DNA of 64,000 nt from Ascidiella aspersa (lineage: Eukaryota): contig OZ004607.1 in NCBI GenBank assembly GCA_963924565.1, positions 35,278,001 to 35,342,000 on the forward strand, given 5' to 3'. The notes below the pieces were generated by a model, which worked only from the letters and a program-made list of their open reading frames with translations, did no database searches and had not been told where the DNA came from. Positions 3,308 to 50,400 of this stretch are shown here, in pieces. The translations under genes and the position numbers were made by a program. Position 1 is the stretch's first letter. Each line of letters begins with the position of its first letter.

Positions 3308-5794
3308 TCACTTCAAGTGCAGCGCGCTCGCGGCCCTTTGTTGCGTCACAGGCGACGCGGCGCTCGTCACACCGTTGCTGTGCACCAGCTGGAGGGGAAT
3401 CCCCGCCGCTCCCGTTGTCGTCTGGAAGCCGGTCGTCATGGGAACGACGGCGGGCATGGTGGGAGGAGGAGGGAGCATGGAGGACACAGAGGAACAGAGG
3501 TAGCGCGCCTGGGGAGGAGCAGATGACGGGAGAAAGCTGGAGGAGCAGGAGGAAATGGTGGAGTGAGTGAGAGGAATTTCAGCACTACTACTGCTGCTTG
3601 TGATAAAGGAAGGCTGCTGGTGTTGCTGCTGTTGTTGTTGCTGTTGGTGCTGTTGTTGCATGCTGATGGCCGACACCGCTTTCACCACGTCCCTGGCGTT
3701 GGCTGCCGCGGCGGCTGAGAGAAAGAACGGAAACGGAAATAAAATTTTGCATTTTTTTTTCAAGTTTTTCCATTACCCCGCATACACGACAAAGATTCAC
3801 GAGAAAGAACGGAGATGTAAGTTTGTGACGTCGCGGTTTGACGTAGGGCTAACTTTGTGATGTCATTTTTTAAAATGTCATGGCTACCCAAACAAAAATC
3901 CTAGATTGGCGACTGGATGTAGGTCAGTTTAAAAAAAAAAGCCTTGTGTAGTTGTTAGCCGGTGTATTCTTCACGTCTAGCCCCTTCCACCCCCTCCACC
4001 CCATCCCTCGCCAAACTGTAATTACTACCGCTTTCGAATTTTTAAGTTTTTCCATTACCCCGCATACACGAGAAAAAATCCACGTTATTTGTCAAATGTT
4101 TTAACTATTTGTTAAACTTCAAGTCAAGCCATTGTCATAAACATAAAACTATAAAACTATTAAAATTGATAATAATCATACGCAATAAACTTAAATAAAA
4201 AATAACCAGCAAGAAATTCTTGTTAGGGGTGTAGTAATCTAAATTTCTGTGTTTAGGGGTGTAGTAACCTAATGTATAAAAACACAATATAATATTTTAA
4301 TTGTTTGTCAAAAAATAATTTTCAAGGCTGCGACGTCGGTATAGGTCACCGGTTCTTCAATCTTTTTTTACTTTTTTAGCAAACCCCAAGGTTATTTCGC
4401 GAGCTTTCGTCGAACCCCACGTTTTCGCTCAGTCACAAAAGCAAAAATCTTTGAGTTTTTTTCAAGCATTTATTCGTTTCCGTTTTTGATCTTTTATATT
4501 TTTAAGTTGCTTTAAAGGCTAATAATATTAACGTTGTGGTGTACCAAGTAATCCTCACCTGAGAGAAAGAACGGAGACGGAAATGCCAGTGACGCTGGAA
4601 CGCCGTCTTCCGTCAACCGGGATTGAGCAGCACCAGCGCGATTTTGCTGGTTCTGCTGGTTGCGATGCAGCTCCGGGAGTTCGATCATCTTCTTCTCCGG
4701 ACCCAGTTGGGTGAGCATCTGCCCCGCGTAGTGCCGACCCTTGTTGGGGCCCATAGGGGACATCCCTAGATGCTTGGACCTAGGGTTCGAATAATTAATA
4801 AATCAACGCATATTAGTTGGGTTAGCGTTTAGGTTTTGGCGCATCAAGTGTCTTTATAGATTTCTATCAGCCTTATTCAATATATAACCAGGAAATTAGT
4901 TTTGATTCCAAGAAATCGTTTGTAAACTTGAATTTAGGATGTCGACCCTAGCTTGGAAGTCTGGTAATGCGCTCAACCCTTTACAACCACCACATTGAAT
5001 GATGCATACCCAAAGAAAGCGATTAGTAAGAAAAAAGTTTGGAGAAATGTATTTAAAATGTTCCTAGTAGTTTTTAATTGAAAAAAAGTAAATTATGTTG
5101 ACCCTATAGTTTTTACATGTCCTTTAATATATGATAGTCTAAAATATTTAAGATACAAAACTGTTGTTAAACATTTATTTCACAAAAACTCGATTTTCTT
5201 TATTTAGATTAAAAAAAAACGAGGTAAATTAAAATAAACTTGATCTGTTGTAGAAAACTGCGCCGTCAATGCTGACCACTAATCTCTATAAAACCTCCTA
5301 ACCTTATTATGTTATAGAGATCAGTGCCCCTGAGCAAGAACTGTTAGGGGTTCTTCAACTATATTTACGGCGGACCCTTAAATTTTTAGGAGAAAAATTT
5401 TCAAAAATGACGTCATATATTGACGTCATAATAAAATTTTAATTTTTATTGTTTTAATTTTATTTAAAGTTATTTTATAAATTGATTACTTCTTAAATAT
5501 ACACTGCCATTTCCATTAGGCCTTACTGGACCACCTAAAACTAGTTCACGGACCCCCAAGGGCACCCCAGTTTTAAAAACCCTGATCCATGAAGAAGGGT
5601 CGTGACTTTTTTAGTGACACCTGCCAGTAATACCTGTCAGTGACTTGGTTGGGGACTTCTCGCGATGGGTTCATGGGTGAGAAGGAGGAGTTGGTCTGGA
5701 ATGTGAAGGCGGGGTTGTTGTGGAACGAGGGCTGCTGAGGTTGGGTCTGCTGGGGGTGACAGTGGGTGGGTGAATCGGGAGAGGACATCGAACC
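3308..5794 (-). CDS. POU2: POU2 C-terminal exons (5794-5634, 4779-4559, 3714-3308): Q/P/S/T-rich low-complexity region
   Basis: GC-richer open frames with canonical splice sites and matching phases (0/2, 2/1, 1/stop); contain polyQ, polyS and polyP runs. Confidence 0.82.
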
Positions 5795-8700
5795 CTGGGG
5801 AAAAAATAAAATAAATGCTTCGTTTTCATTTTTGTTGTTTAAAGCTGTCGCAAAAAAAAAATATTCGTTTAAAATGGACTCCAAATCGCACAACAACATA
5901 AATTGGTTTAAAATTTTTCCCATAGTTTGCTATTTTTGTTTTTTCCTTTTATTTTTTTCAGTGATTCAGGACTTAAAGGGCATAAATCAAAATAAACTTT
6001 CGTTTTTATGTTTGAGGTAAGGGGCAGACTTGGACAACTAGATTTATTTTAGCTTTTTAAAGTTAGATTAGAATTTAAAATTAGAGCATTTAACTTTTTC
6101 ACAGTGGGTGGGTAAGTCGGGAGTGGAAATCGAACCCTGGGTAAAAATTAAACTCAAGTTTCGTTCTGAATTTAGAAAAATTGTGGTTAAAAATTGAAAG
6201 GGGTTCATAACACTGATTTTAAAACTGTGTTTAACAAACAACCACTGATTCAAAATTTCTGTACGGAGCATTTTTGTCTTCATATTTTTGCTATCTTTAT
6301 TTTTTCCTTTCATTTTTTTTGTGTGATTCAGGACTTAAAGGGCATAAATCAAAATAAATGTTTCGTTTTAACTTTTGAGGCGTGTTGATATTGTCGTTTA
6401 AAATGAACTGTCAAACTCACAACATAAAATGAAGGGTTTACAACGAGGATTGCTCCACCGCGCCGCAATAGTTTTGTGTTAATTATACGCATAAAGCCAG
6501 GATTGCGAGACCAGAACCTACCTCTGTATGGGCTTTTTGTTTTATACAACTTTGAAAAACCCATGATTTTCTACCTGCCGCGCCGCGTTAGTTCTCTATT
6601 ATTTGCACAAAAGCAAGAGTGTGAGATTGCATTAATATTTATTGTAAAATTGTTTGTAATAACAAGAATGTGTTAAAGGCGATTTTCGTGTTATCAAAAT
6701 GCAGGATGGTATCGGTGCCGATCCGATAGCAAATTAAAGTAGGTATTTCATCCATGATTTGCCATTTAATGCAGCAACTTCTGTCTTGAAGGGTAAATTC
6801 ATCAAAATAAAGTAGGTTAATAACTGTAGACCTCTTAACGCTAAGGCAAACTTAGGCCTATTAACCTGGAAAAACTATCGTTCAACGTTTTAATGTAATT
6901 TATCTCGCTTGTTTGGGCGTAGTAGTAACATCTGATAGGATCGCTATAGTTTTGTCTAAAATACCGGGTAACGGGATTAAAATCTTCAACCATGTGCATA
7001 GAAAAATAAATTTTGGGTTAACGCGGACCAGGGTATAAACGAACTTCTTTCATAAGTTAATGTTACAAAACAAGTATAGACCTTTGAAACCTGCTGTTTT
7101 TGGTCCAAAAATGTTGAAATGGAATCTAAATACATAAGATGCTAATTTAAAAAAAAAAAAATATTTTGAAAATTGAATCAGATATTTAGGCCTTTGTGGA
7201 TCCACGGACACCAATTTAACAAGGTCTGGCCTAGTGAAGCAACTGAAAGTGTGTCCTCACCTCGTTGGATTGCTGCTCATGCATCGCTATCCGCTTTTCC
7301 TTCTGCCTTCTGTTGCAGAACCAAACCCGCACCACCTCCTTGTCAAGACTGCATTCCTCCGCTATGTTGTGAAGGTCTTCCGAGTTCGGTTTCGGGTTCT
7401 GAGCAAAGCAAGGGACGGGATGGGTTAGATTTAACAAATTTGAGTGGACGTTGTAACCAGGGTTGTCTAACACTTTTGGAATGAAGTTTGATAAAATTCA
7501 ACGAATTTTAAGATACGTTGTAACCCAGGGGTGCCTAACTCTTTTGGAATGAAATTTAATACCATTCAACGAATTTTCAAATTACATTTATAAGTTTTTA
7601 AAGACTTAGAGTTGGATCGCTCGACGTTTTTCAAATGTAATTTGAAAACAAAAACAGTATAAACGCCATGTGGTCAACACAATAACAAATATCTTCATTA
7701 AGAAAACATGTTGCGGGCCGAAGTTTGGTGACCACTGCACTAGACGAACAGTCTATCATTCTGATATGTTTATAATGTTTTCCTTTTTATTCACTTTATA
7801 ATTCCAACGTTAAAATACGAGATGAGTTACTTTTGATAGAAAGGTTGTTTCTGGCCAACCGCAATAACCTTCAATGTGAAAAATGGAGGAAATTTACCAC
7901 GGACAAACTGTCTGGTAACGAACAACATTTGACCCCAATCCTGGTTCAGAAAACACGTGACCAGAATCCGTGACCATTTAGAGAAAAAAAACTAGGGTAA
8001 AGGTCAGAGGAAAACTGGGGGTCACAAAATCCCGTGTAGAAAAAAAAATTAAAAAACTTTCGATGTCCGGAGCGGTTTACGAAACGCAGCCAAAACTACC
8101 CGGAGATCGAAAAAAGAAAAAAAAAAATGACAAGACTCCTTGAGTGCAAAGCAATATAAACACAATTCGCCTCCTGCGAAAATACAATTTCGTGGAATCG
8201 AAGCGCAAAGCAATGGTGATGACGTCACATATATGGTCGTGCAGTTTTGTGGGACGATCGTGATAGACCAACAGTCGCCGCCAGACAGGGAATATTAAAG
8301 CGGGATTTTAGTTTGATTTGCTGCAAACTTACACTGAGTTTTGCGGCATCGTATCTAGGGACCTATGTGATTCGTGTATGCTTTACGCAATGTAAGTATA
8401 CACGAAGCTAACTGCAGTACGTTGCAGTTGAAACGAATTCTTTTCGCGTTGTGGCAGGTTCAAAAAGTTGTTTTACAAACCGAAAACAGAAGAAGGGCAT
8501 TTGAAGGGAAAATTTGTGAAACTATAAAGAAATCCGCGTACGTCGTAATTGATCGGATTTAATTCATTTAACTGTGGTTCAAATATCGTCAAGAATTTTA
8601 TTAAAAATTAAAACACAAACGACATGGACACCTAATAAAATTATATTGACTAAAATATACAATACAATAACTTTAAAATGTTATTCCCAAAACCATAGCA

Positions 8701-11700: not shown

Positions 11701-14700
11701 CAAGTCAGCTTCGGCGAAGGTTGCAAACATACATGGATACAAGTGTATCGAGGCCTTTTTCCATGTTATAGGAAATTGTTTAATTTTTTTTATATAAATT
11801 ACGCTGTTCTGCATCAATCGCCCTTATCTGGGCAGTTCTGACCGGGATAGAACTTTAATTATTACGTCAACAATCCATTTTTTAAAACATAAACAAAACA
11901 CATAAAAACACCTTCGACAAAAAGTAAAAAACAGCGTTAGCAAAGAGACGATTTTTTTGATCGGTAGTTGTCCGACAGTTTAGGTCGCTATCAGTTCCGA
12001 TCCCACTCCGAAGACCGAAAGGTAAGTAATGAAAGGTGACAAACGTACCGGCAACAACTATCTTTTTTGATTACGTTTATTCTGTAACATTTTCAGCAAA
12101 CAAGTTGTTTTATCGCGTACTATCCAGGCTTCGATAGGTTGAAGGTATTGTTTACATTAGAATAAAGAATTCAAGACACTTCAATAATAGACTAGAATCA
12201 TTTGTAAAAAGTTAATGTTCTGTTTTTCACTTGAAAAATTTTAAATCTATTTATTACGATGTTAATATTTGTGTTCGATATAGTTCGTTGTAATGAATGT
12301 TTTTACGTTAGTTAACACATAGCGGGTGTTAATGTATTTCCGACTTGTAAAAATGTATTTAATGTATTCAAAACACGAAAAATAAAACATGACCTAATAA
12401 CAGTATTTTATTATCATTTTTTAACCTAAATGTAGAATGAATATTAAGTCCATAAACAACTATAGGCTACAAGTCATTTAATACAGACCCTATATCAAAC
12501 GGCTGATTAAAACCTCCACTCAAAATAAACTAAAATAATATTGGGTAATTGTTTTTTAAAAAAATGTACAAAGCTGTTTGTTTGACCGCAAGCCAAAGGC
12601 ACTAATGCCGATGATTTTTTTAATTGTTTCTAAGTACCACACGTTACATCATAATTTGTTATTTTAATTACGTTTTTTTTTTGTATATACAGTTACACTT
12701 TGTGCGTGTTTTGCACACAAATAAAAAAAAAATTAATAAAATACCTAACGCTGGTTGCGTGGCAATATCAACAAACTTTTACAATGGACAGAAGAATAAC
12801 CGCATCATTGAAACAATGCCTAGCAGCACACTTGCACAACTAGATTTATTTTAGCTTTTTAAAATTAGATTAGAATTAGAATTAGATTGTTTTAAGTTTT
12901 TTCAAATTAGATTAGAATTAGAATTACCGAATTCCAAAAAAAAAAAATTTTAACTAGAATTTCAACTAGAATCACATTCAACTATTTACAACCAATTTAA
13001 TTTAATCGCAAAGTATTCTTATAAGAGTGTGAATGGTAAATATGTGTGTGCTAATTTTTAGGCCTTTTTATGCTTTTTAGACTGTAAAAATTATATACAA
13101 GTCGTTCTGACCAAAGAGTTTTAATTAAAATTTTGTGTTTTAACCGAGTCACTAAAAATGCCGTAGGACAAAGTAGCATTTTTGGAAAAATCTGAACTAA
13201 ATTAGAACTAGAATTATAGCACACAGGCAATTCATAAATTAGATTGGAATTAGAATTAGCCGCATTTTGCTCAAATTCAATGAATTAGAAAACTAGAATT
13301 ATCTAGTTGTCCAAGTCTGCCTAGCAGCAACAGGATATTCATTTTCGCAAGAAAAAAGTTAAAACCACTGCTGTAAACCAAAGTCAAGTTGAGTCCAAAC
13401 AAAATGGCCATCGGGGAAATTTCGCACAACCACACAAGGCGCCGTTGAATTTGTATGCTAATCAACCGTGGACCAAGCTCGTCAAACTCGTGCTTAAATA
13501 TGGATATTGTAAACAAGTAAAGAGCAGTCTCTGCTCGCATACATTTGCTGCATTGTTTCGCCAACCCGACAGCGATTTGGATAAACAAACAAAGACTGAA
13601 TTTAAATGGAACTTTTTTGTTTATTTGGGCAACAGATCCGACCTATTGGCGGTAATACTGCTGACTAAAATCTTAAAAAAGTAATCATTTGTTGCGCTAT
13701 ATTTTACTTAAAGGTGGTTTCTTTTAACTGCATATTCATCGCATTGCGTCGACAATTCAACATTAATTTAAATAAACAAAGAAAAACTCAATTAAACTGC
13801 GGTGTTTCTGTTAACAGGGCTCACAATGCAGTAACCAAGTCTAAGATTGAATTATGTATTTCTAACGCTGAACATGAAAATAAGTTACACGGTTAAAATA
13901 ATGGATTTTAATGTCGCTTTAGCAGACAAGTCATTCCCGCGGTTAGACATATAATCTAAACATCAGTTTAACACAGGGGTTCTTAAACTGTGGTTCATGG
14001 ACGGACAACTTCGGGAAACGCGGGCTAGTTTAGGAGGATCCATAAGAGGCCAAATTATAACTAAAATCACAGTTGAGACATTTTTTTCAAACAAAGATTT
14101 TAATTGAAAACAAGACTCGTGTCGCCTTCTCGTTGAATGGATTTAGACTTCAAATAAGTTTCAAATTTTTTTGACCAAAAACAGCAGATTTCTTAAGCAA
14201 TTTAATTTAAAACCCCACAGTTCTGAAAATTTAATTTTGCCCCGGTTCACAGTGACCAAAAATAATATTGGAGGGTTGCGGTAAAATAGTTTATAAACCC
14301 TAGTTTGTTTCCTGGGTCAACGTGACGTCGTGCTTCGCCCAAGCGCGAATCGACGCCCTCGGACAAATGCCATTGCTTATTTGGATCGATGTGTGAAGGG
14401 CAACACGAACGAAACGCGAGACAAAATGGCAGACGACGATTTCTGCACTTCTACGAACACGTTTTCTACAGCTTTCGGGGAAGCGGTTATTCCTGGAAGG
14501 GGGTGGGGGGTCCATGAGGGGGGCTGAGAATTGGCGGCGGCCCCAAAACGTGCGCGCGCATCCAATTAAACGCCGCCGCGCCAATTTAGCCAGATTTTCG
14601 AGCGAGAATCATGCAAATCGATATTTTTTGACTTGATATATGAGAGGGAATACGTGCGAAATGTTGCGAGCTGCAAGACCGATGCGGACATACGTGCGTA

Positions 14701-17700
14701 TGTACGTACGTAATTGCATAGACTACGCGGACACGTTGATTATGCGTTTGCTGATCACCGACGCTTTGTATTCAAATTGTAAATCCGCAAATGTTTAGGC
14801 TATAGTGCGCTATAGAACCAAGGGAATCCAGAGAGAGTTTTTTTTTTACAAACAGTATCATAATGTTTTTAAAGTAATTTTTGCTCTTGCCACTTCAAAA
14901 ATTAAAAAAATGTTCGCTATAACTACATAAACATTGCTTTATTTGTTTGGCAGCGTATGTTTTTGTACTAGGCCGATAATATGATCTTAGCAAAGCGAGG
15001 GTGCGACATTCGGTTTCTTTTAATTATGAGTCTATTATTTCGGGAATTTGTAAGTTTTAAGTGTAAATATTTGGTAAATTTCCCTTTAATAATGTGCGAA
15101 ATAGGAATCGTATCAGCCAAAACTATCTGGTTGTGGCCATTGTATATGGTAATGCACCTAATATTATATTCTGCCATTTTACTTGCAGGCTTGCGATAGA
15201 CTTTTGTTGTATGTTATTGTGTTTGCGTGTCTCAGCACTCGATAAACTGAATAAAACACCCACTTGCCTCTACAGTACTTTATACTAACACAATTGTATA
15301 CGAACTACCGAGCACCCACAAGTTGTCCAATATGCCACAAAACGAGTACAATAATCGGCTAAAGCACCATTTTCCCACATGACGTCATGAAAGTAACAAG
15401 CTCCTTACTCGACTGAATATGACGTCATAAAAGTAACCAACATGACGTCATGAAAGTAACGAGTTTTTTACAAGACTGAATATGACGTCATGAAAGTAAC
15501 AAGCTTCTTACCCGACTGAATATGACGTCATAAAAGTAACCAACATGACGTCATGAAAGTAACGAGTTTTTTACCCGACTGAATATGACGTCATGAAAGT
15601 AACGAGTTCCTTACCCGACTGAATATGACGTCAAGCGTGCTTCGTTTTTTCTGATCGATGCTCGTTCGCTTCTTACGCTTCCTTCCAGATGGGAATTGAG
15701 TATCGATTTGGGGCATGATCATCGGCCGACCTGCGAAAGAAAAACGTTACATTTTCTCGATTTGTTTTTTTTTGAAAATCTAATTACTTCTGAATAAAAA
15801 CGTGTCACGGTTTTTTGATGGGCAATCGAACTAATTTATATTTATATTAAACATTTAATAAAACTTTGATTCCGATAATATTGAATTTCAGAAAATAGCT
15901 ATCAATTAGAAAAATCCAACTTTTTTAGAAATAACAAAACAGCTAAAATATTTAAAAATAAATTACTTTGTCAAGTTTTAAAATTAAGCAACTGTCTACA
16001 AATTCCGGCATTTTATCGATGTATTATAAAGCCATTTATAAGTAGATTTCCGATTTAAAAAAAATAACTACAAACAAAAAATCAGTTACATTGCGACAGT
16101 ACTATGCGTTTCAAGTAAATTTTAATTTTTTCAGACACAAAAACAAAAACTTTTTTTGTTCCTGGAAATGGCATATTGCTTTTAAAGTGTAAAGAAAATC
16201 GTTTCTGCAAACAATTTTAAACATTAGTGCAAAGGCACCTGAATTAAATTTCAGGAAATATTTATCAATTAGAGATATCATATTTTTTTCAGGTATAACA
16301 AACCAGCAAAAATATTTAATTGTTTAGTCAATTTTTGCAAAAGTATTCAACAAAAAAAAAAAGTAAATTGTAATTTTACTAAACAAGTACTACAGAAAAA
16401 TTAAAAAAAATATTGTAAAAAAATTTGCTGGAATTAAAAAAAGGTAGAAGTATAATTAAACGTAACAGTGCAAATTAAGTTTCTGCATATACTTTTAAAC
16501 AAAAGTTTAGTACAGGCTCCCAACACTTAGGTTAAGCAAAACAAACCGCAGGCCATTCAAAGTAACGACCACGCGTTTCTTCGCATATGACGTTGTTGTT
16601 GCTTTGTTTGTTGGCAACTTTCTTGTATTTAAAGTTTGACCTTATACGAAGGGCTTAGAATGCCGACGATTGTCTGACCATATGGACGAGAACAATCGTT
16701 CGACGCTTTATGCAAATCACCCCGCCGTTTGTGCAACTTTAACCAGATGGCCTTAACTGGTAAATGTGGACGTGGTAGTGGTGGGCTCTAACTAAGGTGA
16801 CTGCGATTTTTGATATGTCTATTTGGGCCTTTTGCTGTTTATAAGTTAAAAAAAAGGTGACTGGGCTCGAATTGGAAACACAATAGGGGGGTGGTATATA
16901 AAATATATAACAAACATTTTTACCTTTTGGTTGTTTACATAGAAAGAAAACCTATAGATAAAAAATCAATTTTTTTAACGTTTGTAGACAAAAAAGTGTT
17001 TTAAGGTTAATTGAATCATAACAAATGCCTAAAACCAATATAAAGAATGACAACAAGTTAAAAAAAAGATTAAAATGTTTAAAAATGAATTTACCATTGC
17101 TTAAAAATTCACGAATTTTGTCAAAGTTCAAAACACAGATGAACTTGTTGGTAGATAACCACCATTTAAAACTCATATTGAGGTGATTTTTAGCTTCTTG
17201 ACAATCATTGGCCCGGAGTTCGCCTCATAATTAATTGATGAATATATTATTTTTGCGTAACATCAATTGTTCCCTAGAACAAAAGTCATTTATTATGGCA
17301 TTCAAATTAACGCAAGACCTTTATCTGTCAAATCATGATAAGGTGCCCAAACGAGAGATCACACATCTTAGCAATCCACCTGAAAAACGTGTCGGACTAG
17401 AAATAGCGTCACCGTGCGGAAAATAGATGAGCTCGATCAGACATTTTTCCTTGTCAAGGTTTTTGCCAAACAAGGGAACAAATAATGAGCAAAACGCAAA
17501 TAGCGAATTGAGGGTTTCGCCCATCCAATAATAGAACATTAGACAAAACAATTGCAAATAAACATTCGTGTTAACGAGTGGGCCCCTATTAGCTTGCCAG
17601 TGAAAGCCGAAGAGGTCACTGGAAGATAAAAGTGTCCTTAATTGCCACGTTAATGAGCCAGGTTTTGACCCAACGCCAAGCTGCGTTTATTATTAGGAAA

Positions 17701-20700
17701 GAACTCGTACCCCGCGCGGGTATTTCGATTATTTTGGAAGGTTACGAAACGATTTGGATTTGGTTCTGAGTATAAAAGGCCACATCAGAATCACGTTTTT
17801 TTCGTTTGTTTCGAAGACGGATTTGCATTAAACATTCCGTCGAACTTGTGATTTGACAAACAGAGCATTATTTGCTGTATATAAAATTAGCAAAAAAACA
17901 TTAAAAAAAAAAGAGAAATATATATGTATAAAACATAAAATAATTTCTTAAAATTTTACAGAAATATATATTTCGCCTTAATAATAAGGATTCTATGTTT
18001 TAACCTTGTTTGTAAACAGTCTTAACATCATTCGACACGAAAGCAAGAATTTTTCTTTTATATTTTATTGTTTGTGGGAGATTTCTAAAGTATAAGTGTA
18101 TCGGTATCAGCTATAAATAAAATTATATCGACATCTCTGATAACAAAAAGCATTTTTTCATCAAGAAGTACGACGGGCACAATTAGCAGTAAAATAAACT
18201 ACACTCGAACATATTGGAAACTGGAAAAGCAGCACAAGCACTTAATGGTGTAAGGAGTTTTTTTGCACGTATTGACGTTTTTATTGAGTCCAGTAAAAAA
18301 ATGTTAGCTTGTCGTTTAACATTAGGGAACTTTTAAGTATGTGGCATAATTTTGCTGGGTTGTACTAAATATGCATATTCGGGCTGTTTTGGGAAATTGT
18401 GGCTTGTGCGACGTTTTACTTAAATCTTGCCAAAAAAATCTAAAAAAAAAAAATGAAAAAAATGAATTACACGTTTGCTGTAACCCAAACCGTGTAAATA
18501 GAACAACCCTTAAAAAAACATTTAAACATTGCTAGAAGTTCTTATTTAAAGCAATTAGGTTTGCCCGATATTAATAGTAAAGGTCATTCGGAGACAAGAA
18601 AGATCTGCTAATTGCCACGTTAAGTAGGCACGGAAGTAAAGCAGCGCCAAACATCGCTCTAATTATACGACGCCACGACGCCTTTCCGAGTAAATGCATA
18701 TTTTTAGAGGAAGCTAGACAAATATAAAATGAAATAAAACGAGCTTTGTCATAACATTACCAAAAACGGATAATTTATTTTCTCAAAAGGCTTTAGAAGC
18801 CTTTCAACCTCGACCCAAAGTGTAGTTACGTAACACAAATTAGAATAAAGTTATTAACAATATTGAAAGCTGTCCTGGCTAAATATTTCGCCACGAGTTC
18901 GTTTTCTAAAATAAAGAAGAAAAGTCCTAAAAGCGACAACAGGCATTGTTGAAGGTTCACTGATCAAACTGTACGCAACCCAAAGGCAATTAAAGCGCAT
19001 GTAAAAATACTATTTTTTAATTTTAATTTTTCGCTAATCATTTATACGCTTCGCTAATCTTGCATTGAGACCTGTTTAAGTCCCACATGTAGCTACGATA
19101 TATGTTGCCAAGGCCGTGTACCATTTTGCAAAGCCGACTAAAGGTGTATTAATTATGCAAGAAGGTCTTTTGAATGACAACCGTTAAAGTGTTGGGTTGG
19201 CATCGGACGTTACAGGTAAAACTGGTTATCGTAGGTCGCTATAAGCTTCAATAAGACGAGTGTTACATGTTTACAATTCAAGTCGATAAGAGCAAGTAGA
19301 CATAATATTGCCCTGAGAAGAGGAATATAATACAAAGCAAACCCCTTTGAGAAGCAACACAGGTCAGCCAATCTTGGGTATTAGGAAGCATCAGACAACA
19401 ATACTTGTATAGCTAGCGTTCAGTAACCAATCTATAAGCCAGTGGTTTCCAAACCTTTTATTGGCTTGTGGCTTCCTACATAAACTAGAAATAGTTCGCG
19501 GCACCCTTGCTCGTATTTTTGCTGAGTAGTTAACTGTAACTTTGCAATAAACGAGATCGAAACAGCACATTAACTGTGCAACAAAGTTGAAATTTTATTT
19601 AATTTTTTTGCACTTTTATCGTACACCAAAAATTGAAATAATTTGAAATATCTCTCGGGCCCCCTTGAGCGTTGAAAATGGCACCCTAGAGTACCGCGGC
19701 ACCCCGGTTGAGAACCACTGCTATAAGCAGTCCAACAGCGTCTTATACGGCCTGCGTTTGCCTATTAGTATAGGATTTAATTATAGCGACCGGGAATTTG
19801 CGCAATCTACGGATGCCCCCACGCCACTTCAATATGAAAAGTCCTTCCGCCGATTCGAGACTCGGGTTACGAGCCCGCCACCACCACCCTGGAAACGCGA
19901 GAGCGCCGCGCGCCAGAGACAATGGAAAAAGAAGCCAGTGACAATCGGATCGCGCCTCTAGGGCAAAACAGTTAAGCTTAAGCCGTATAGTTTTCTAATT
20001 ACGCGTGCATGAGTGTAAACTTTGGGGAAGGCCAACTATAGAAGGCAAGGGTAAAATATCTTCATGTTTTTTTTCAACCTTACTTAGGTTAATAGGATTT
20101 CTGAGTAGCTCTACACCTTGGTAATTAAAACGAACAAGAACTGCAATAAGGCAAAAAAAATGAGTTAAATAGGGTTTTTTCCTCGGTCCTTGGGCAAGTT
20201 AAAACAAGTTAATCGTTTCTCGCGCAAACCCGTTGACCAGTATAAATGCCGGCTATTTTTCTAAAAAAAAAAAACTTTTTTCTCTCTCTTACAGAAACTA
20301 ACAAAAAAAGAACAGGTGCCGAAACGTACGGAAATCAACAAAAATCAAAAACCTAAAGGTTTCATAATGATACATATTTAAAAACTTGCTGAAAAATAAA
20401 ACTTTCGTCAAGTATATAAACTCGGAAAATATAGCTGAGAGTTTTTCGGTGAACGAACTAGTCTAAGGTTCTTAACCCGCAAATGGCATATTTGACACAT
20501 ATGAGGAATTGGTAATATTGACAATCATAAAAGAAGCAGATTTCAGATGACAAATAACAATGTTTTATGTTGATTTGATGTAAACTATTACGTCACTTTC
20601 TACGGTTTATCCATCGATGTACGTCATAACTTAAAAAAAAATGTAGGGAGGTAGAAATCGCAAGGGAAAACAAGAAACAGCGCAGAAACGCGGCGATAGA

Positions 20701-23700
20701 GTCTGTAATTCGTGCACATAGTTAGATTTGTTGAGATTAGTTCTAAACAAGATTTCTCCAAACTTTTAGGACCTGAGGCTAAAATACGAAGACGAGGCTT
20801 AAGTTGCTTAAATTTTAATTTCTTTATGTTAATTGTCTTATGTTTTTTTCGCCTACGAAAAGTCGAGTGAAGAGAATAGGCTTGCTAAAGCTTTGCAGTT
20901 ATACTCGCGCTTAGTATTTGGTGGCCGTAAAAAAGTTGAGAAACAACAAAATCGCAGCTTGTAACTTGCAAATTTAGGATGTTAGAAATCTCAGTTTTTT
21001 CATTACAAGGAAAAAGGTTCACAACCAGCCTCCCAAACAGGACAGAAACACTGTGATAGAGTCTGTTATTCGTGCATTGGCGTAAAAAACGCTTTGCAAC
21101 AGACCGCTCGTCACCAACCATCCCCTTTGCGACCACCAAGGGAGGAACTAGCTAAGCCAACCTTTAATTAACGTAAGAAACAACAACATTAACCGTTAAC
21201 AACGTCAAGATTCGGGCCAACATCACTTAATTCCGTGAACTAAAGGCGCGCGTAATTGACCTCAAACGTTCTCTTTTTGTGTTTGTGTTGACGTCGATGA
21301 CAAAAATTGTGACCTTTTCAAAGGGATGTTTTTTTTCGGTCTGCAGCAAATTCGCCATTTTGCTTAATTGGGGATACGTCGGCGACTTTTTGAAATCGCA
21401 GGCGATAATTGGGCGGTTTTCGCATTTACACTCGCGTTAGACGTAAAAAAATTGGCCAGTTTTGGGGTTTTTACAAGTTCGGCGAAAAGTTTAAATTGTA
21501 GCCCTCGGTAAACAATCATTAATCGCTCAAGTTCGTTGTTGGGTATTTACCATTACCATGTTTTTGTTGTCAAAATATGTGACTATTGGGTATGTTACAA
21601 TATTGTTGTACGTGATTAATGGACATTTTGTGCCCTCACGCTATTATCACCATTAAAAAGTAAATTATCACCATTAAAAAGTAGATTTTTTGAGATAGTT
21701 TTCTTGTTGTTATGCTCAGCGACAAATACCGTATTTTTCTTGATTTTTATGGCAATTTGGTTTTAATTAGAGATAGGCAGATATCTGGTTGCTACCGATA
21801 TATCAGTATCGCTAAATGTAGGCCGATACTTTTGCAGATATTTTAGTACGAAAATATAATACTATATAATAATTTTTCCTGTACAACAAACAACTTACCC
21901 ATTTTTTAATAAAAAAATTGGGTTTTAGCATCACGCCAAGTTAATATGCAAAATAATAGTTTGATAATTAATAAAGGTATATATAATAAAACATTATTAG
22001 GATTTTATTTTCAATTAATTCGAGTTTTAAACATTACCAAGGTATATATATAAATCGGTATCGGGTATCGGTTGACAAAATTATAAAAAATCGGGTATCG
22101 GTCGATCTCTAGTTTTAATACCTGAAAGATATTGTTGTCGGAATATTTTTGTTGATGGGATAAAACTCTAACCTTCAACGCCTCGCAAATGCCAACGTTC
22201 TTTCGCTATTGCGTATGACCTTTTTAGCGTTACAGTTTATGATTTTAAAGGGCGTTTCCTAGATAAACAACTTACCCCATGTTATTTTTTCTTCTGAAAA
22301 TCGGTAATCCACTAGCTTTTAGGTAAACACCTTTTCGAATGAAATCTAAAATATCGCCAATTTATGAAAACATGTGGAAATTTCGCCTCATTACACACTG
22401 TAAAACACAGTTGTGCAAAATCTTTTCGTTTTAAGCAGAATTATTAAGCGATCGGTCCCCAAACTCGTTTGATAAAGCACTCAGAACTGTCCGCCCCTTT
22501 TTTGAAGTTAACTGTGCGAATTTTTAAGCTCGTTTGACCCTATTACGTCTTCTAAACTTTTTATAGATTCCGAACGCCCTGCCAATCTGTTATTAACTAA
22601 AATCGGGGCGATGAGTTAAATATTTGTCCATGGGCCTTGATATGAACAAATCATCGACATTATGAATTTGACGTAGAAAAAAAAAATCTCTAGGTATTTT
22701 ATATTCGCCCAAGTGTGCACGAAAAATAGACTTTTCCCCATTGTTATACGATGCGCTACAAAGCCAAAACTATAACCTACAAAACAAACAAAAAAACAAT
22801 AGGTTGTGGGTAAGTTGTTTATCTCGGAAAAAGCACTTAATAAATCGGAAATTCCGGCACTAAAGAAGGTCGCAAGTGCGCACAACAACGGAAGCGCGCT
22901 GGCCTTTGCAACGGAAAGGTTAAAGTTTTATCCCAACAAAACAACAAACCACAATGGTCGGAGTGCTAATTAGCAGATTCAAAATAGTATTCGTTCGGGT
23001 CACTAGGGATATAGGGCACAAACAGGACTTTAAGGGGACACTGACACAATTTTTACGTCACAAATGCTGCAGCAAGGGTTATAAAACGAAAAAATAATCA
23101 TATTAAATAAAACCTTTGGTCTTGAAATTAAAAAAATGTGAATTATTATTTGTTTTTTATTTGATTAAAACGTGCAATAAGTTGCACTAACCACCAGTGT
23201 GGCAATAAGGCGCTTATTATAGACAATTAAGTGTGATAAACTCAGAGTTGTACTCAACAAGGCTTATTTTTCATTTAGGGTTACAAAAAGAAAACGGTTT
23301 CTCACCGTCTTTTGCTTCGTTCAAAACGGTGTTGGTGTCTCTCAGCCATCTTTCCAGCATCGGCTTCAGCTTGCACATATTCTTAAAGCTGTTGTGAAAA
23401 AAAAAATCAACGAATGGTTGAAAATAGGGAACGGTCGATGCTTGACATTGCATTCCGATACCGATACACGATATTTTTGACAAAAGTATCGCGATCCGTA
23501 ATTGACGTCATAACTAGGCTTAAACAATTAAGGCAAGTAAAACTGAAACGTGAAGTGGTATTTTTTTCTAGGGTATAAGTCCAATATATGATTTAGTATT
23601 AAAAGGTTTAGTTATTTCCGGTTGTTAAAACATTACTTTTTGATAGATTTAACGTTCTAGTTAGAAATCAGTTCATTGCATCGCAAATCTATGGATAAAA

Positions 23701-26700
23701 TGCCCACGTCAATGTGTTATCGGACCGGCACTGATACCACCCAATGGTATGGGACGAGTACCGATATCACAACTTCACATCGGGTATCTACTACGATTCC
23801 ATACTATCGGACATCCTTTGTTGATAAGGTAGTTTGGGTGTAGTGGACCCTTCCTATGCGTTAACCTAAACTTTGAAGGGCCATAGATATTGAAAATGGG
23901 ATTTAAAAAAAATCGTACATCATTCGTACGCTTTTAAAAAGTTTTTTTTCGTACTTTAATCGAAATTTGCCGGTTGGCATTTAAATCATCGTCATTTCGG
24001 TCTGACCTAAATATAACAGAGAATAAGCAAGCGTGATTGAATGTTTAAGTATAAATTTTACCGAGCATTAAAAAAACAGTAAAAACACATTCAACTGTAA
24101 GCGACAGGAAGTCAATTCATACGTTGGAGAAAACGAGCTCTGTTGAAAGTCGCCTTGCCGATGGAACAAATATTTGCTCAGCGCTACTTAAAGGTGTGCT
24201 GAAAATAGGCATGGCGCAACAACTGTTTCGTCCTTACGAACGTAAACAAAACCAAAAATTTGCATTCACGCTAACTCGGAAAGGCAAGGCTGAGTGAGAG
24301 CTTAAAACAAAAGATGATGAGATTGATACGATTAGCGTACGACCGCCGCAGGCAAGTCAACGAGCCTATATCGTGATTACAAAACTTTGTAGCCAAAATA
24401 AGTCGAATTACGTAAAGGGCGTTGATTTTTCAGGCTATAGCCAACTTATGTTTGCTTGCGATCGACTGAAATATTTTTAGAGGCTCGCGATCGACTGGCT
24501 CGGTACAAAAAGTCACAAGAACACTTACTAAACATTTTGAGCGTTAATTGCATTTTAAGGTTAATTTGTTACGTCATCAAAATTGCATACCAATCATAGC
24601 CAAAAAATAATCAAAATATAAAAATAAATGCGGTTTGAATGCCATTGGTTTTAGGAAGATCGTAAAAATTTCGACTTAGCGAAGCAGTCGGTGTTTGTTT
24701 TTTCATCAACGCGAAATGTGCAATAAATTCTCGCGAACCTTATAGTGGGAAGCAAAGAATATTCAACGTTTCCTAATTTAGCCTTGGAAATTAGGCTGCG
24801 CAAGACGCCTATAGAGCACAAGTGGTTGGTAGTATTGTCAGTACACACGCAATAATTATCTGTAATACACATAATCAGATGGCCAAATTAGGTCGATAGC
24901 TATAGTACTATAGTTATGCTGGCCAAATTTAGCCTATTGTACTATACTTGTGCCGGCCAAAATTAGGCCCATAGTACTATAGTTGCGTTGGCCCAAAATT
25001 AGGCCCATAGTAACATAGTTGCGCTGGCCAAATCTAAGCCTATAGTAGGGAAGGTACTCTAGCGGTTTCGCAGCCTTATCACACCGCCTGTCCAAATTCT
25101 AAACCAGGGGCGTGCAACTGTTTATCGCAACGGCTATAATATATAGTTATGATGGTGCTGCGGGCCAGACAATCGAACAACATATACATTTTTTGAACGA
25201 TTTTTCTTAAAACAACGTGAAATAATAATATATATTTTATACACTGCACCTATAAAGTAAGATCACGACCATGTTACTGAATCATTACCAGCAGAACAAA
25301 CAGTTTTACTACAATGCACACTATGACGCAATAATGGATGTTTGGTCAGTGTGACGTAACACAAGTTGAAAAATGCCAATAACTCCGTTACAAATAACTT
25401 TTCCAACAGTGAAAAGTATTTAAAATTAATGCGCTACCTGACGGAGTATGTGCGGGCCACGTAAATAGGTACAGCGGGCCGTGCTGTGGCCCGCGGGCCG
25501 TATGTTGCACGCCTCTGTGCTAAACTAACAGCGATTCGTTTAAAACACCGAGCTGTGAGGGCGTGGACATTTCACTGTAGCACCTGCAGTCCATAATTAG
25601 GCAAAAGGATAACAAAAAAATAACAAAGCATCTGGTTTAATAAAAAAATAACGACCGACACTTTTACTTTAATTTGAAAGTTGAATAACCGCTAGATATA
25701 GGCAGTTAAAAAAATATTATCTTAAAGTAAAAATCACCCTCACCTGAGGTTGAGGGCTTCAAAACGCGAGATAGTCGTCTGACTGAAGTCGTTGCCATAG
25801 AGACGCCCCATGGCTAGCCCCACGTCCCCCTGGGTGAAACCCATCTTGATCCGCTTCTGCTTAAACTCCTTGGCGAAGATTTCCAGCTTCTCCAGTTGAG
25901 CGGCTTCCTCCTGACAAAGTAAAGGGAAGTTTACGGAGAGTGTGTGCAGAAAAACTGAAAAACATATTGTATATACACCACAAGTAGGGAAGTCCAATAC
26001 ACGTTTTAATCCAACACCTGATACTTTAGACTAAGGTTTTGCGTATTGTTAGTAGACACGCAGTAACATATATACAGATGGCCAAAATTAATCCGGCCCA
26101 ACAGGTTTGCAGAAATACTTCACGTCTTCTGCTTTTTCGTGATTTTTTTACGATAATGTCCGGGGATTTGCGTTCAATAGTACTTCGTACATTTGCATGT
26201 AAAAAATAAGACACAATTTAACTTATATTTATAGCTGTAACACTTTTTTGTAGAATTGACGTCGACGTTCTAACGACTCATAAAAATCTTCACTGAACAG
26301 CCAGTTTAAAAAGTTCCGCCCATAAAATGTTGTTTTTTGGCCTAAAAAAGGGGTCGTTTTAAGCAACAAGGGCCGATATTTCAATTCAAAACATTTGAAA
26401 GCTTACTCGGCGAGTATAAAGGACCGTTACTCGTTACTCGGCCCGGCACTCAGCATTGACAGATTGCATTGCAATATGGCCCGAGGTGCAGCCAACTTAT
26501 GTTTGATTGCAATCGACTGAAATATGTTTTAAAGACTCGCGATCGACTGGTTCGGTAAAAAAGTCACAAGAACATTTATTAAACATTTTGAGCGTTAATT
26601 GCATTCCAAGCCAGCGACGGATGTTAATTTGTTACGTCAAAGAACGCTTTATTATGATGGCCGGACATCAATTGGTCAATTGTTCATTTTAATGTACCAC

Positions 26701-44409: not shown

Positions 44410-47400
44410 GTGTCATGATGTAAAAACACGTGTAACTAGATCATTGTTTGCAAACCTTTCGAATTAAGCCACATATACAAAATATAAAAAAGCACACTTA
44501 CTTGCAATTTCATTCGGTCGTTTTGTGTAATGATAAATTTTAAATACATTTTTATACCATTAAAACACACCCCATAGTGCGCGGCGAAACCAACGTTTAA
44601 ACCAATGAACTTATCAACCTGTAAGGTCAAGCGGTTATACCGATATATACCGAAAAACAAAACCTATATTTAAGTCATGTCGTTAACGATTCATGTCAAT
44701 GTTTTTCAACCTTTTTCGTGACTACCCAAATACTATAAGCGTAAGTTTAACAACGACTCTTTGGCGACCTATAAATATCCACTGAGATTGTAAAGAATTA
44801 AAATTACCACTGAATTTTTTTTTTCATTTACATTATCCTTGTCCCGAGTCTGCCACAAGCATGAAGTTGTCTTGGATAATGTCTGGTAAAAAAATAGTAT
44901 CTTAATTAAAACAGGCTATATCTAAGTAGTCTGAAATATTTACCTATGCTACTAATTTTGTTATAATGATGAACTGAATTCCCGCAACTACAATTAAAAT
45001 ATTGTTTCTCTAACTTATGTTCTTCCGGCAAGAATATATAAGACCAATAAAACATATTTAACACCAATACCACTAATGCATTGCCAACGCTTTGTACCGA
45101 GCATCCTTATTGGAAGTTCAAGTAAACTGACAACTGACTCCAGGGTCAACTGACTCGATAACCATTTTATGGTTCTTCGTTGAAGCTTTGCTATTGAGGT
45201 CGCATTTATAGCACCAAATAAATGTTTATCTTTATCTTAGTGACAACATAGAAAATCGCCCTTGATTTTTAGCAACAGTCTATATATCGATATTTTGTAA
45301 GTTTAAAGAGCACAAAGCACAAGTAAACTGTAGCATTAATGAAATAAATTTAACTAATGTTAGGCATGTCGTGCTTCCGAAATTTCATAAATTTTTCAAA
45401 TATTTTGCTCAGAACCAATCTCAATCAACCTAAATGTGTGAACTACCGTATAGTGCAGTGGTCTTCAACCTTTTTATTAACTGCACCAAAATTACATATA
45501 AAATGAAATCCGCATTTAGATGCGACCCGAGTTTGTTCTTTGTTAAGTCATTTTTTAGCTTATGACACGAGCGATTAAACATTACGCGTAAAATATATAG
45601 GCTAAAATTTCAGAGAATTGTGGCTACACATGTGTAATGAAATGAGAAGTTCAAATTAACACATGGAATTAAAGTTAACACATGAAACATGATTTTTGAA
45701 TTTTCTTTATTCAGTTTTTAATATACTCATTACGCTCGTTTAAACACTGAGCGCATTAAAACCACTAAACTATACAGGTATTGGTGAGTGATGACGACCC
45801 CAGAATAGGTTTAGGCGACCCCACATGTGGTCGCGACCCATAGGCTGGAGACCACTGGTATAGTGGGCCAAATCAAACCACGCCCCATTTTGGGTTACGA
45901 CTTGTAGTTTCACAAACAGTGATTTACATCAACGATTGTTTTTTATTTTTTGTTATAGGCGTTAAAAGGAGGTTCATCAAGCCTCGACATACTGGAGGCG
46001 GCCAACTACTTGCTGGAGAGTTTGAACTCCACCACAATGCAACTCAATTCCTCGCAACTGTCCAGCCTTGCAGGTTTCATGGCTTTCGTGAATCAACGTG
46101 CGGAGAACCAAACGCTCACGGTGAGGTTATGACGATATTGTACCCAAAGGTAGGACCCAGAGGGGGGCGATGTCCGACTCATAAACTAAAGTTTTTGCTA
46201 CCCAAACTGACTAAGTGTTAAAGTTTATTGCGCTTCGTGTTCCCAATATGTTTTTCCAGTTTAAAGCGAATCCTTCCAGTATCACAAGACGCCATATGCA
46301 TACCAGTGCATGTTCATTCTTTCTATTGTTTATAGAGCCTATAGCGCGGTGATACAAAACGCAATTTCAGCCAAATTCGCCTAGATAAAGAAACGTTTCG
46401 CAATATTACTTGTTCGCAATACAGTTTTTTTTATTTTGAACTGCACCTCTCTAGCTTTCAAACAATAAGATAAATGTTTTATGTTGTGTTGTAAATTGCC
46501 CAAGTTTTTACGTGATTTTTGACTTCCATTAATTTATATCGAGAAATATTTTTTATGTCATACATTATGAGAAATCTCATTAGCTTACAAATGCGTTGTA
46601 GTTTTTATTGGTGCTTATAGCTTTTGTCCATCATTAAATCGGGGCTTTGAAAATAAAAGACTTTGACAAAGTTGTAATCTAATATGTGCATTTTTGGTTT
46701 AAAACTAATTACCGTACTTCACAGACTTGAAAAGCCTTGATCTATAAAAATTTCTCTTGAAAACAAACAGGTGTCTACTGAACTTCTGACAAAAGTGGCG
46801 GGGATTGCAAACAGCTTGACTGGATCTGTCTGGGAGATAAACAACAGCTCGAATGAACAAGCTGTGAAGAACGAACAGAAGAAGGTTATCACGTCCGTGT
46901 CGTCACTTGCACAGAGAGTGAGGCTGGAAAACGCTTCGAGCTCTTTCGAGTTCGCATCTCAATTCCTGGCCATTCAGGTAGACAATTTACTCAAGTATTG
47001 GATGAATCTTGTTCAGAACCAATCCCGATAATCATCAGTGTTGTAAACAAGTCATTTTGAGATGGCTTAAGTATTATAGTTAAGTCTTTCGAATAAATAA
47101 CAAGTCAATTCCGAATCAAATCCTTGTCATAAAACGTAAATTTTAAACTACATTAAACTTGGTTAAATCGTCTAATTATGAGAAATAACCCAACTAAATA
47201 ACAAACACGCATAGCAAGTAAATTGTTTTATGAGCAAAAATTGAGATAAATAACCAAAATTTACAAAAATGCTTAATAAAAACACTTCATTTCAACCCAA
47301 GTTATTTGTACAAAAGACTTAAATCAAGTCAAGTCAAGTCATTAGTTGGAAAGACGTAAGTTAAGTGAAGTCTTTCGAAAACAACGACTTAAGTGCACTA

Positions 47401-50400
47401 TCATTCACTTAATTTATTACAACACTAAATCACAACCCTATATAAACTACTGCAGTCGGTGATCCAATGTAATCAAACGGTAACCCAGTATTGCGTAAGT
47501 ACCCATGTCCAACAAGTTGAGAAAGACTTAAATCATAACTTCTTTAATTGACACCTGCGACATGCAGCGTTTAATATCGCAATATGCGTCACTACCTTCG
47601 CGGCTGTCAAGACCACCCTTCAAGTCATATATTGCAGGCGTGACAGAAAAGAATCATTTACGGCTAAATCTTGAGGACTTGTTAGTTCAGCTTTTATTCA
47701 ATCACGCTTAAACCTTTTTTGCAGTGTTGTAAAACACTGAAATAACTTAAGTCTTTAAGTCGTTTAAATCAAGTCGTTTGAAAAATATTCAGGCTAAGTC
47801 AATTGTCATTATTAAGTCAAGCACATGTCAAGTCACTAGAATTAAAGTTTTAAACGTTTTAAACTCTTTGATGAACTTATTTATTTTCCAAGAAAACAAA
47901 GTGTGTTTAATTTAAACTTCAAATTACACCATAAACAATAGAGCCATATGCATAAATCACCAATACCTATATAACCCAATACCTATAACACCCAATACCT
48001 ATATGCATTATCTTTAATAGGTACAACTTTAGTAAAAAACACACATGTAACATCTTTATGTAATCACAATCTTTTCAAAGGTAAAGGACAATTTCGACCT
48101 AAATGCCCCATCAACTTTCGTTCCCGGTGACGCAGTCCGGGTAACTGTGCCGGCCTCAGCACTTAGACAAGCCCTGGCTCTGTCGAATACAAGCAACCCA
48201 ACTGGTAGAGCCTTGCGTAGCGTCAGGAGTTCATTTGTATTCTATAATGATGGTTCGCTCTTCTATTCGACGCAGAGAGCGCCTTGGGTAAGTTGGTTAT
48301 TGGCATGAAAAACAAATATCTATGATTCTGTTTAAATGAGAGACTAAAGATTGCTTTCTGGCAAAATATGTTTCTCTTATCATCAAAATGACTGACTTTG
48401 ACTAGGACAGAAAAGTATATCTAAATATTTGCTTTAATTTGAAGCCTTTGTCAAAATTTACTTGTAAGGGCGAGGAGATAACTTGTTTATTAGCATTTAG
48501 TTTTTATATCTGTGTTGTATAATACATTCTTTTCACTATTAGAATATATACTAAGACTTCAAAATTGGTTCAAATCGGCCTAAATAAATTATTCGTGAAG
48601 TAATTCCAGCAATAATTTTTGAAGTTCGCGATACACGACATACTTGTCCAGTTTACGTGTTGTTATAAAAAGCGCAAATTTTACATACTAGATTATCGAT
48701 TGTTCTGTTGCATCACTTCAAACCGCTTATATTTTGTTATTTTAACCCATGCCTATTGTCACTATTGTGGAATAAATAATTTTTAGTTTTTTTTTACGTA
48801 AACCTCAGTGTCACGGACATTTAAAATGCCAATTGGTAATGTTGCGAAATAGTTTTGATTTTTCCCTGGACTTCCATACTCGGTAATTAGCCTGATGGAT
48901 GGTTTTCGTTATAAAACCGGTGCTAGTCATTTTAATCCTACCATCAGTGAGGCCTGTATTTTCAGGTGGTCACTATATTGACGTCCGAGAAAAAGCCACC
49001 TAGGGCCAGTTTTAATACTCACATTATTTCAGAGAGAATGTGTAAACGTATTTAATATATATGTGCTGTTTTCTTCCTATGGCAAAGTCACAAATTAGAA
49101 TCGTTAATTCTATTATTTTGTATGGGTTATTCCAATTCAACCATATTTACTCCAGTTACAAGAATGTATTTTTAGGTTGTCTCTATCGACGTCGGAGAAT
49201 CGGTCAAACTGAGTAATCTCAGCGAACCAATCAGAATCCAGAGCACGCAAGATTTCGTAGCGTACGGGAAATCCCCAGTGAAAAACTCAACTCTCCAGGT
49301 AATGATTAGTTAAGGTACAAAACAATAAACTCATTGCTGTTCGGTAACCTTTCAAAGTATGAATGGGATATTAGATGTCAACTTTTTTGCCTGGCATACA
49401 TCCGCTACAGACCAACAATTTGCTTCAGTTAAACGTTCATACACTTTCTTGCTAAGCATGTCTGCAAACGTTTATACTATTGTAAAACCAAAACTTTCAC
49501 CCTACATAGATCCTGTGTGGCGCACAACGTTCGGTAAAAACAAATTTCCTATTATAAGTTGTTTTTTTTTTTGCATTTTTGCGATGGTTTGTAGCTTATA
49601 GTTGTAAAACAGCAATGCCGCCGGCGCTTGTTATCCCTCATGCTGTATATAACTAGTTACTTACTTACTAGAAACTTTTAGCCAGTAATAACAGTTCTTA
49701 AACGTTTTACTGAGAGGTAGCAACCCAGCGTTCTTTTGTACCCCAATTTTGATGTTCATTTCTCGTTCTTTTGATGTTCATTTCTCGTGCGATTTTTTTT
49801 TTTGTTTTTTGCTCTGCAATCCTCTCTGCAATGTTTTAAGGCGGACGTGAGTGTGTAACTCAAACCCCGGGAACACACCGTTTGAATCGCTTCAGAAAAA
49901 ATCAATGTAATTTTCAAATTTTGCTGCAGGCCTTGCTGCATACGAGTAAGTGTGTTTACTGGGACCTGACCTTTGGAGAATGGAGAAGCGATGGCTGCTG
50001 CTTGAACTTAACGGCCGAAACCCCGGAATGCTTGTGCGACCATCTCACAAACTTCGCCGTGTTGGTGGTAAGGTTATCTTTGAAGTAGCCATCGGTTTTT
50101 GGTTAGCATTTCATTGCAAAGGTGTGAGTGTTAAACAGCCACGCTTTGTTTTCTGAAAACTGATACTCAATATTATTTGTGGCCCTAAATAATCGAATAG
50201 CGAAATCAGCAACTAACAAAATCAAAATCGTTTATGTTTAACCTTTTTTTGGTTTCTTTTAACCTTTTTTGTCATTTAGTGAATCCTAATTTGAATGTTT
50301 ATTTGTTTAACTAGTGGCCGACCTTTTTCGGCAAAATTTCAAGTAAAAATATTAGTCTTCCAACGAACGAAAATTAATTCAAGGTTTAGCAATTACTTTG

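Follow-up and report, generated by a model that had tools for sequence, protein, structure and literature searches.

The Pou2-like gene and its homeodomain exon

The window analyzed here is a stretch of 64,000 nucleotides, the minus strand of which carries a gene with both a POU-specific domain and a POU homeodomain, as detected by Pfam, PDB and tblastn searches (Table 1). Judging from best hits and exon structure, it appears to be an ascidian Pou2-like gene. With POU class 2 (Oct-1, Oct-2, POU2F3 and the ascidian Pou2, as covered in the relevant part of PMC8948423) it shares the bipartite POU domain and the multi-exon structure. For the exon encoding homeodomain helix 1, at whose end the array described below begins, the one relative found, out of four candidates, is a POU protein of Phallusia mammillata, with 82% identity over this exon and 86-98% over the other three POU exons; the residues LDVIF are kept in Phallusia. 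A sequence-only reading of the same DNA had proposed this exon and an acceptor at 7398, and both are borne out by the Pfam matches to POU and homeodomain exons and by an assembled contig spliced from 15615 to 7398. The ratio of observed to expected CpG over the gene ranges from 0.96 to 1.45, most bins being at or above the sample median of 1.05.

Table 1. Positions in the window of the POU exons, the junction-spanning array and its parts
Feature	Position	Strand	Details or evidence
First POU-specific-domain exon	25744..25910	-	Pfam PF00157, E 3e-23; 98% to Phallusia
Second POU-specific-domain exon	23306..23388	-	Pfam; tblastn of Phallusia POU protein
Pou2-like exon, 116 nt (linker, homeodomain N-terminal arm, helix 1)	15615..15730	-	tblastn, 82% to Phallusia POU; transcript contig
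Next exon, homeodomain helices 2-3	7261..7398	-	Pfam PF00046, E 4e-13; PDB best hits POU2F3, Oct-2, Oct-1
Junction-spanning minisatellite (five 40-nt and two 23-nt units, 9-nt terminal stub)	15379..15633	-	sequence, TRF, parse
First 103-nt higher-order copy (40+23+40)	15491..15593	-	
Second 103-nt higher-order copy	15388..15490	-	
23-nt unit	15531..15553	-	like start of 3' tail joined to last 10 nt of 40-mer
Second 23-nt unit	15428..15450	-	identical to first 23-nt unit
Terminal 9-nt stub, TGACGTCAT	15379..15387	-	direct repeat of exonic box; putative intronic seed
Exonic CRE palindrome	15626..15633	.	within Leu-Asp-Val-Ile codons, residues kept in Phallusia
Authentic donor, CGG/GTAAGG	15609..15617	-	U1 duplex -10.8 kcal/mol; used in X3 contig 17
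Decoy +40, CGG/GTAAAA	15569..15577	-	-7.6 kcal/mol; +5G lost
Decoy +103, CGG/GTAAGA	15506..15514	-	-10.3 kcal/mol
Decoy +143, CTT/GTAAAA	15466..15474	-	-1.6 kcal/mol; effectively dead by prediction
Decoy +206, CGA/GTAAGG	15403..15411	-	-5.0 kcal/mol; -1G lost
In-frame TGA	15591..15593	-	first three letters of second CRE

Anatomy of the array

The array starts 19 nt inside the helix-1 exon and runs into the following intron. A unit-by-unit parse of the minus strand from 15633 to 15379 gives units of 40, 40, 23, 40, 40, 23 and 40 nt followed by a 9-nt stub (255 bp), and TRF reports for the same interval a period of 103 with 2.5 copies, 95% matches and a score of 468. Both analyses confirm the proposal that a tandem array with a 103-bp period (40+23+40) has been built from the end of the POU homeodomain exon. 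Each unit opens with TGACGTCAT, and the 40-mer joins 19 nt from the end of the exon (15730-15615) to 21 nt from the start of the intron. Copies of the donor-like GT thus lie at +40, +103, +143 and +206 (offsets modulo 3 of 1, 1, 2 and 2), exactly where they had been predicted; indeed, every coordinate in the sequence-only reading was right, and a motif count agreed with its eight CRE palindromes, one of them exonic. The two 103-bp copies differ at four sites, all four of which fall within donor 9-mers. A genome search located the whole array at one place, and its 3' flank is also single-copy. The array is single-copy and, at 95% identity, young.

Use and strength of the donor copies

Evidence on splicing came from run X3, the kind of which is not on record; its intron bins are almost empty, hence we treat it as RNA-like. 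Contig 17 of this run (4429 nt, depth 20.3) contains window positions 7260-7398 at record positions 4012-4150 and 15615-15728 at 4151-4264, with zero letters between. This contig alone accounts for a depth of 4.25 (20.3 x 114/544) in the bin 15310-15853, where the mean depth of X3 is 4.26. The most upstream donor is therefore used in the Pou2-like transcript, as seen in a single assembled transcript of this run. The X3 assembly yielded no contig spliced at a decoy or retaining the intron, and contigs drop rare forms, so that this result shows use of the first donor and not an absence of decoy use. A raw RNA run, X6, sampled to about 6%, contributed about one read on the array exon.

We compared the donor copies by the energy of their duplexes with U1 (Table 1), using the 5' end of U1 from this same genome. 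The U1 snRNA genes form a tandem cluster (G000:C5:29506522-29578111) with 42 scored copies at a spacing of about 1.19 kb. The +103 decoy has the best U1 pairing among the 516 GT sites of the 8.2-kb intron, and the remaining donors of the Pou2-like gene range from -7.2 to -11.6 kcal/mol. When predicted opening energies are included, this decoy equals or surpasses the true donor in three of six settings. The hexamers had been quoted correctly in the sequence-only reading, but they cover only the intronic part of each site; at positions -3 to -1 the +143 copy has CTT and the +206 copy CGA, and these changes remove most of the U1 pairing. By predicted pairing, then, one decoy (+103) would be a real competitor, one (+40) marginal and two weak.

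Masking of the donor by RNA structure was considered and rejected, as the energy needed to open the true donor (4.0-8.2 kcal/mol, depending on nascent length) was rated as lying in the range found for five other donors of this gene (5.2-9.7 kcal/mol). The array folds strongly (z -6.5), as expected for repeated palindromes, and the inside of a 49-nt hairpin does not surpass shuffled sequence, 27% of the shuffles being as good.

Predicted consequences of decoy use

Read-through from the exon meets a TGA after seven codons, as had been claimed, with the stop at 15593-15591. All four decoys are also out of frame; their frame is irrelevant, since this one stop lies upstream of the first decoy and so all four would give an identical truncated product whatever the frame. 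The product of decoy splicing or intron retention would stop seven residues beyond the exon and lack the recognition helix. Under the distance rule, nonsense-mediated decay (NMD) acts when a stop precedes a later junction by more than about 50 nt. Decoy splicing places the TGA at more than this distance, and later junctions follow it, so that decoy-spliced RNA would by this rule be an NMD substrate.

The array had been proposed to act as a splicing switch. The consequence envisaged was right, in that a premature stop, the loss of helices 2-3 and a probable NMD substrate would follow, whereas a role as a switch is unsupported: the sole spliced contig uses the first donor, three of the four decoys pair far more weakly with U1, the human precedent described below uses the most upstream site, and the same architecture occurs in unrelated genes of this genome.

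Known counterparts

The Pou2 array belongs to the known minisatellites at exon-intron boundaries that include a donor. In the sections of Borensztajn et al. 2006 (PMC1557585) on the human F7 gene, the 37-bp VNTR of intron 7 is described as having a first unit that spans the exon 7/intron 7 boundary; its identical pseudo-sites are silent, and the most upstream site prevails, over stronger sites as well. The same sections report the downstream pseudo-sites of the LMNB2 and PDGF minisatellites to be silent, as in F7, and the two nearest pseudo-sites to be also used in CBS IVS13 and in intron 2 of the interferon-inducible gene 6-16. All four of these human minisatellites have, as presented there, the same architecture as the Pou2 array.

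The likeness to F7 is close. In the Pou2 array the first unit holds the exon end and the authentic donor, and head-to-tail copies, four of them GT-bearing, lie in the intron; the most upstream donor is the one used in the single assembled transcript, which shows its use and not the absence of others. F7, in the portion of that source concerned, likewise has a boundary-spanning first unit, a donor reiterated downstream (4-8 times) and use of the most upstream donor, and its unit length and copy number are similar. By the same description, the F7 pseudo-sites are identical to the true donor, whereas the four of the Pou2 array all differ from it and three are weakened, and each unit includes 19 exonic nt in the Pou2 array versus 4 in F7. 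Features of the Pou2 array that set it apart from F7 as portrayed there are the higher-order period of 103 bp, the CRE carried by each unit and the stop within the first. The hosts are an invertebrate chordate and human, respectively, and length polymorphism is documented in that account for F7. With the Pou2 array, an architecture already described gains a further example, from an invertebrate chordate. We found no earlier description of an ascidian minisatellite at a splice donor in the literature searched, which largely excludes subscription papers.

Junction arrays elsewhere in the genome

A strict search pattern of three perfect donor motifs spaced by 25-52 nt matched 66 times in this genome, at 17 places, versus 389 times for the reversed control, and hence shows no genome-wide enrichment of donor triples. 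Sixteen of the 17 places proved on inspection to be TRF arrays; ten seem by eye to begin in an exon, and 5 of the 16 arrays passed an automatic test for an acceptor plus an open frame. Three of 12 translated upstream frames match Pfam families above the cut-off up to the first donor: Peptidase_M14 (zinc carboxypeptidase), MH2 (identified as Smad4, E 1e-32 in PDB) and NAD_binding_4. In these arrays 3 of 3, 2 of 2 and 4 of 6 decoys, respectively, are stronger than the first donor or weaker by no more than 1 kcal/mol. Over the ten exon-like arrays, U1 pairing is at most 1 kcal/mol weaker than that of the first copy in 78 of the 91 downstream copies, a count that leaves out 3 of the 17 places and comes from a search that selects for intact donors. 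Unrelated genes of this genome thus share the junction-array architecture, and the class is larger than the strict pattern reveals, because the Pou2 array itself fails that pattern. Tandem arrays in general are frequent, with 33 of period at least 20 and score at least 150 among the arrays of period 15-120 in 1 Mb.

Several of these loci carry arrays of in-frame length. The Smad4-like MH2 exon (L098; G000:C7:462000-466000, minus strand) runs at its end into an array of 51 nt x 3.2 that holds two identical decoys; the unit keeps the frame, which stays open for 61 codons, and decoy use would therefore add 17 residues per copy to MH2 with no stop. Arrays of 36 nt x 27 (L101; G000:C7:31444000-31448500) and 51 nt x 4 (L093; G000:C4:155500-159500) also follow exon-like ends, and at both the downstream donors outpair the first donor with U1. 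Judged by predicted pairing, these two and other in-frame arrays such as the Smad4-like one would be better candidates for alternative donors than the POU array. We presume a resemblance of L101 to TAK1, for which Pfam and PDB gave no confirmation. At a further locus (L092; G000:C4:131000-135500) a 31-nt unit, present in seven copies after an exon-like stretch, combines a perfect donor with a perfect CRE. More donor-bearing arrays follow exon-like sequence at L090, L094, L096, L099, L100 and L069, among which Pfam confirmed carboxypeptidase-like and fatty-acyl-reductase-like sequences. Many of the 17 places lie within about 2.5 Mb of contig ends.

Probable origin and tolerance of the array

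We hold with fair confidence that the Pou2 array is a minisatellite spanning the exon end and its donor, most likely a tolerated by-product, and that the first donor remains the one chosen in splicing. Two 9-bp TGACGTCAT boxes lying 40 bp from each other were its likely starting point, through slippage or unequal exchange. The exonic box may be a by-product of the conserved Leu-Asp-Val-Ile codons, and the intronic box one occurrence of the palindrome that is commonest in this genome. A 40-bp duplication would then have been followed by a 63-bp duplication, leaving a 23-nt junction unit, and by a 103-bp duplication. The 23-nt unit resembles the first 13 nt of the 3' tail plus the last 10 nt of the 40-mer, which is the junction that a 63-bp duplication would be expected to leave. 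In the Haber and Louis model, as quoted in PMC3389668, minisatellites start from DNA flanked by direct repeats of 5-10 bp. The Pou2 array has a 9-bp direct repeat at its unit ends and an incomplete terminal unit, as expected under the two initiation models quoted there, and an origin of this kind is what we infer.

Three features could account for the tolerance. The most upstream donor would be preferred, as in human F7; three of the four decoy copies would be poor competitors in view of their weak pairing with U1; and the stop 22-24 nt into the intron would allow NMD to clear rare mis-spliced RNA.

Two other origins were rejected. The 23-nt unit is probably not a piece of the dispersed family of CRE pairs, given that its spacer similarity is within that of shuffles (15%) and the 3' flank is single-copy. 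Gain of the intron by tandem duplication does not fit an 8.2-kb intron with the array only at its 5' end; we take this intron to be ancestral.

Substitutions in the decoys

A possible but less probable history, compatible with a tolerated array, is that the array was slightly harmful: leaking decoys would have lost transcripts to NMD, and substitutions weakening these decoys would have reached fixation under selection. In the 40-mer, four of six variable columns lie at positions -3 to +6 (p 0.016), and the concentration of all four differences between the 103-bp copies in donor 9-mers has p 7e-4 by sites, or 5e-3 when counted as three events. U1 pairing is weakened by at least 2 kcal/mol in 18 of 120 possible substitutions and in three of the six observed events (p 0.047). 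The test is post hoc and covers only six events, one of which struck a copy already without +5G and another of which (+6) is near-neutral, and the strongest decoy (+103) is still intact. In the ten other exon-like arrays there is no donor excess, with 17 variants per 90 donor 9-mer positions versus 52 per 274 positions outside (0.19 versus 0.19), a comparison biased by a search that selected for intact donors. The decoys are probably not fully neutral, and the clustering of substitutions hints at selection against leaking decoys, which speaks against a useful switch. Should such clustering hold across a large set of arrays, it would provide a measure of how strongly selection opposes cryptic donors.

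Regulated unproductive splicing as an unlikely alternative

We think it unlikely that the array is a regulated valve of unproductive splicing, in which use of +103 in some tissues or under stress would divert a tunable share of Pou2 mRNA to NMD. The reading draws on the standing of +103 as the best of the 516 intron GTs, with pairing about as strong as that of the true donor, on the lengthening of the exon to 219 nt that its use would cause, and on the position of the stop upstream of several junctions. There are also precedents: the part of PMC3510495 dealing with latent 5' splice sites and suppression of splicing reports that heat shock activates latent donors behind stops in human cells, pseudo-sites are used in CBS and 6-16 according to the above-cited sections of PMC1557585, and human tandem repeats can associate with splicing, as stated in PMC10078293 in the part concerned. 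The latent sites, as characterized in PMC3510495, are like those of the Pou2 array in being intronic donors after an in-frame stop that are normally unused, and unlike them in that the latent sites of the Pou2 array are copies of the true donor. Against a valve stand the lack of a decoy-spliced or intron-retaining contig in X3, the degradation of three decoys, the youth (95% identity) and single-copy state of the array, and the commonness of the class in unrelated genes. Each of the four decoys has letters that tell it apart, which allows junction reads to be sorted by donor. The +40 and +103 copies have the last 19 exonic nt in common with the true exon, so that reads with a donor-side anchor of about 22 nt or less would be credited to the true donor. 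Ascidian embryos permit minigene tests of whether the first donor wins outside mammals.

CRE palindromes

The palindrome TGACGTCA occurs 13 times in the window versus 0.66 expected; eight copies, all perfect, are in the array and five outside it. It ranks first in over-representation among the 235 palindromic 8-mers seen in a 400-kb sample, at 16.8 times the count expected from a second-order Markov model, and 149 copies in 1 Mb sampled correspond to about one per 6.7 kb. Pairs of ATGACGTCAT 10-35 nt apart number 880 genome-wide versus 0 in the control, and CRE triples give 607 matches versus 5, six of the 607 coming from the Pou2 array. Eight of nine aligned pair loci share a dispersed repeat with 24-25-bp CRE subrepeats. 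In several dispersed repeat families (L006-L018) TGACGTCA recurs every 24-26 nt, the box being conserved and the spacers diverged; the conserved boxes may be binding sites for a factor or a transposase. No description of genome-wide CRE enrichment in Ciona or invertebrate repeats was found among the titles listed in the literature searched, again largely without subscription papers.

Against this background we consider it improbable that the array is an exon-derived homotypic enhancer for bZIP proteins (CREB/ATF), as the sequence-only reading had also suggested. The cluster of canonical CREs is present, with all eight perfect, and the gene body is not CpG-depleted, so that germ-line methylation of the CREs is improbable and they may be bindable; the part of PMC1796609 concerned describes binding of CREB to the canonical CRE and an absence of promoter bias among sea squirt CREs. 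The cluster is not exceptional, however, since hundreds of multi-CRE clusters exist, mostly in dispersed repeats, and one CRE is met per 6.7 kb. CRE clusters being so common in this genome, eight in a row are expected from the amplification of one box, and the exonic box, lying within conserved codons, needs no regulatory explanation. An RFX X-box combined with the CRE as a module was sought and rejected, as there is none near the array and one match in the window versus 1.64 expected.

CRE-bearing minisatellites make up 5 of 168 sampled arrays versus 0.68 expected. We rejected the CRE as a special minisatellite seed because these five are not independent, two being copies of one repeat and four sharing a 26-bp period. 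A link between CRE-seeded minisatellites and the M26/CRE recombination hotspots of fission yeast is speculation. Slightly more doubtful than the enhancer is a joint reading in which three decoys were pruned and +103 was kept behind the CRE-formed stop, the array would serve as an unmethylated bZIP pad and a stress-activated poison donor setting the Pou2 dose, and TGACGTCA would seed junction-capturing minisatellites genome-wide.

Read depth and other features of the window

An assembly artefact is very improbable, since the units carry diagnostic substitutions in a nested pattern and the DNA-type run X1 has a mean depth of 70 in the array bin versus 53 and 59 beside it, a depth that does not give copy number (X1 contains 0.58 of the words sampled from another part of the gene). 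Over 14222-17485 the DNA-type run X2 has a depth of 4-33 versus about 100 elsewhere in the gene, which may reflect either a divergent intron haplotype or a filter effect.

The POU introns contain very high-copy short interspersed repeats at 12830-13320, 19490-19720 and 21830-22100, with contig depths of tens of thousands. Within 3766-4080 on the minus strand, a short stretch near 4075-4040 recurs near 3800-3765, just upstream of the last-exon acceptor; the end of the preceding exon resembles the pyrimidine tract of the last acceptor. On the plus strand, we take the exons at about 46700-55900 and 60300-60650 to be those of a putative adhesion GPCR (GPS, 7TM) and a putative C-type-lectin-like domain.
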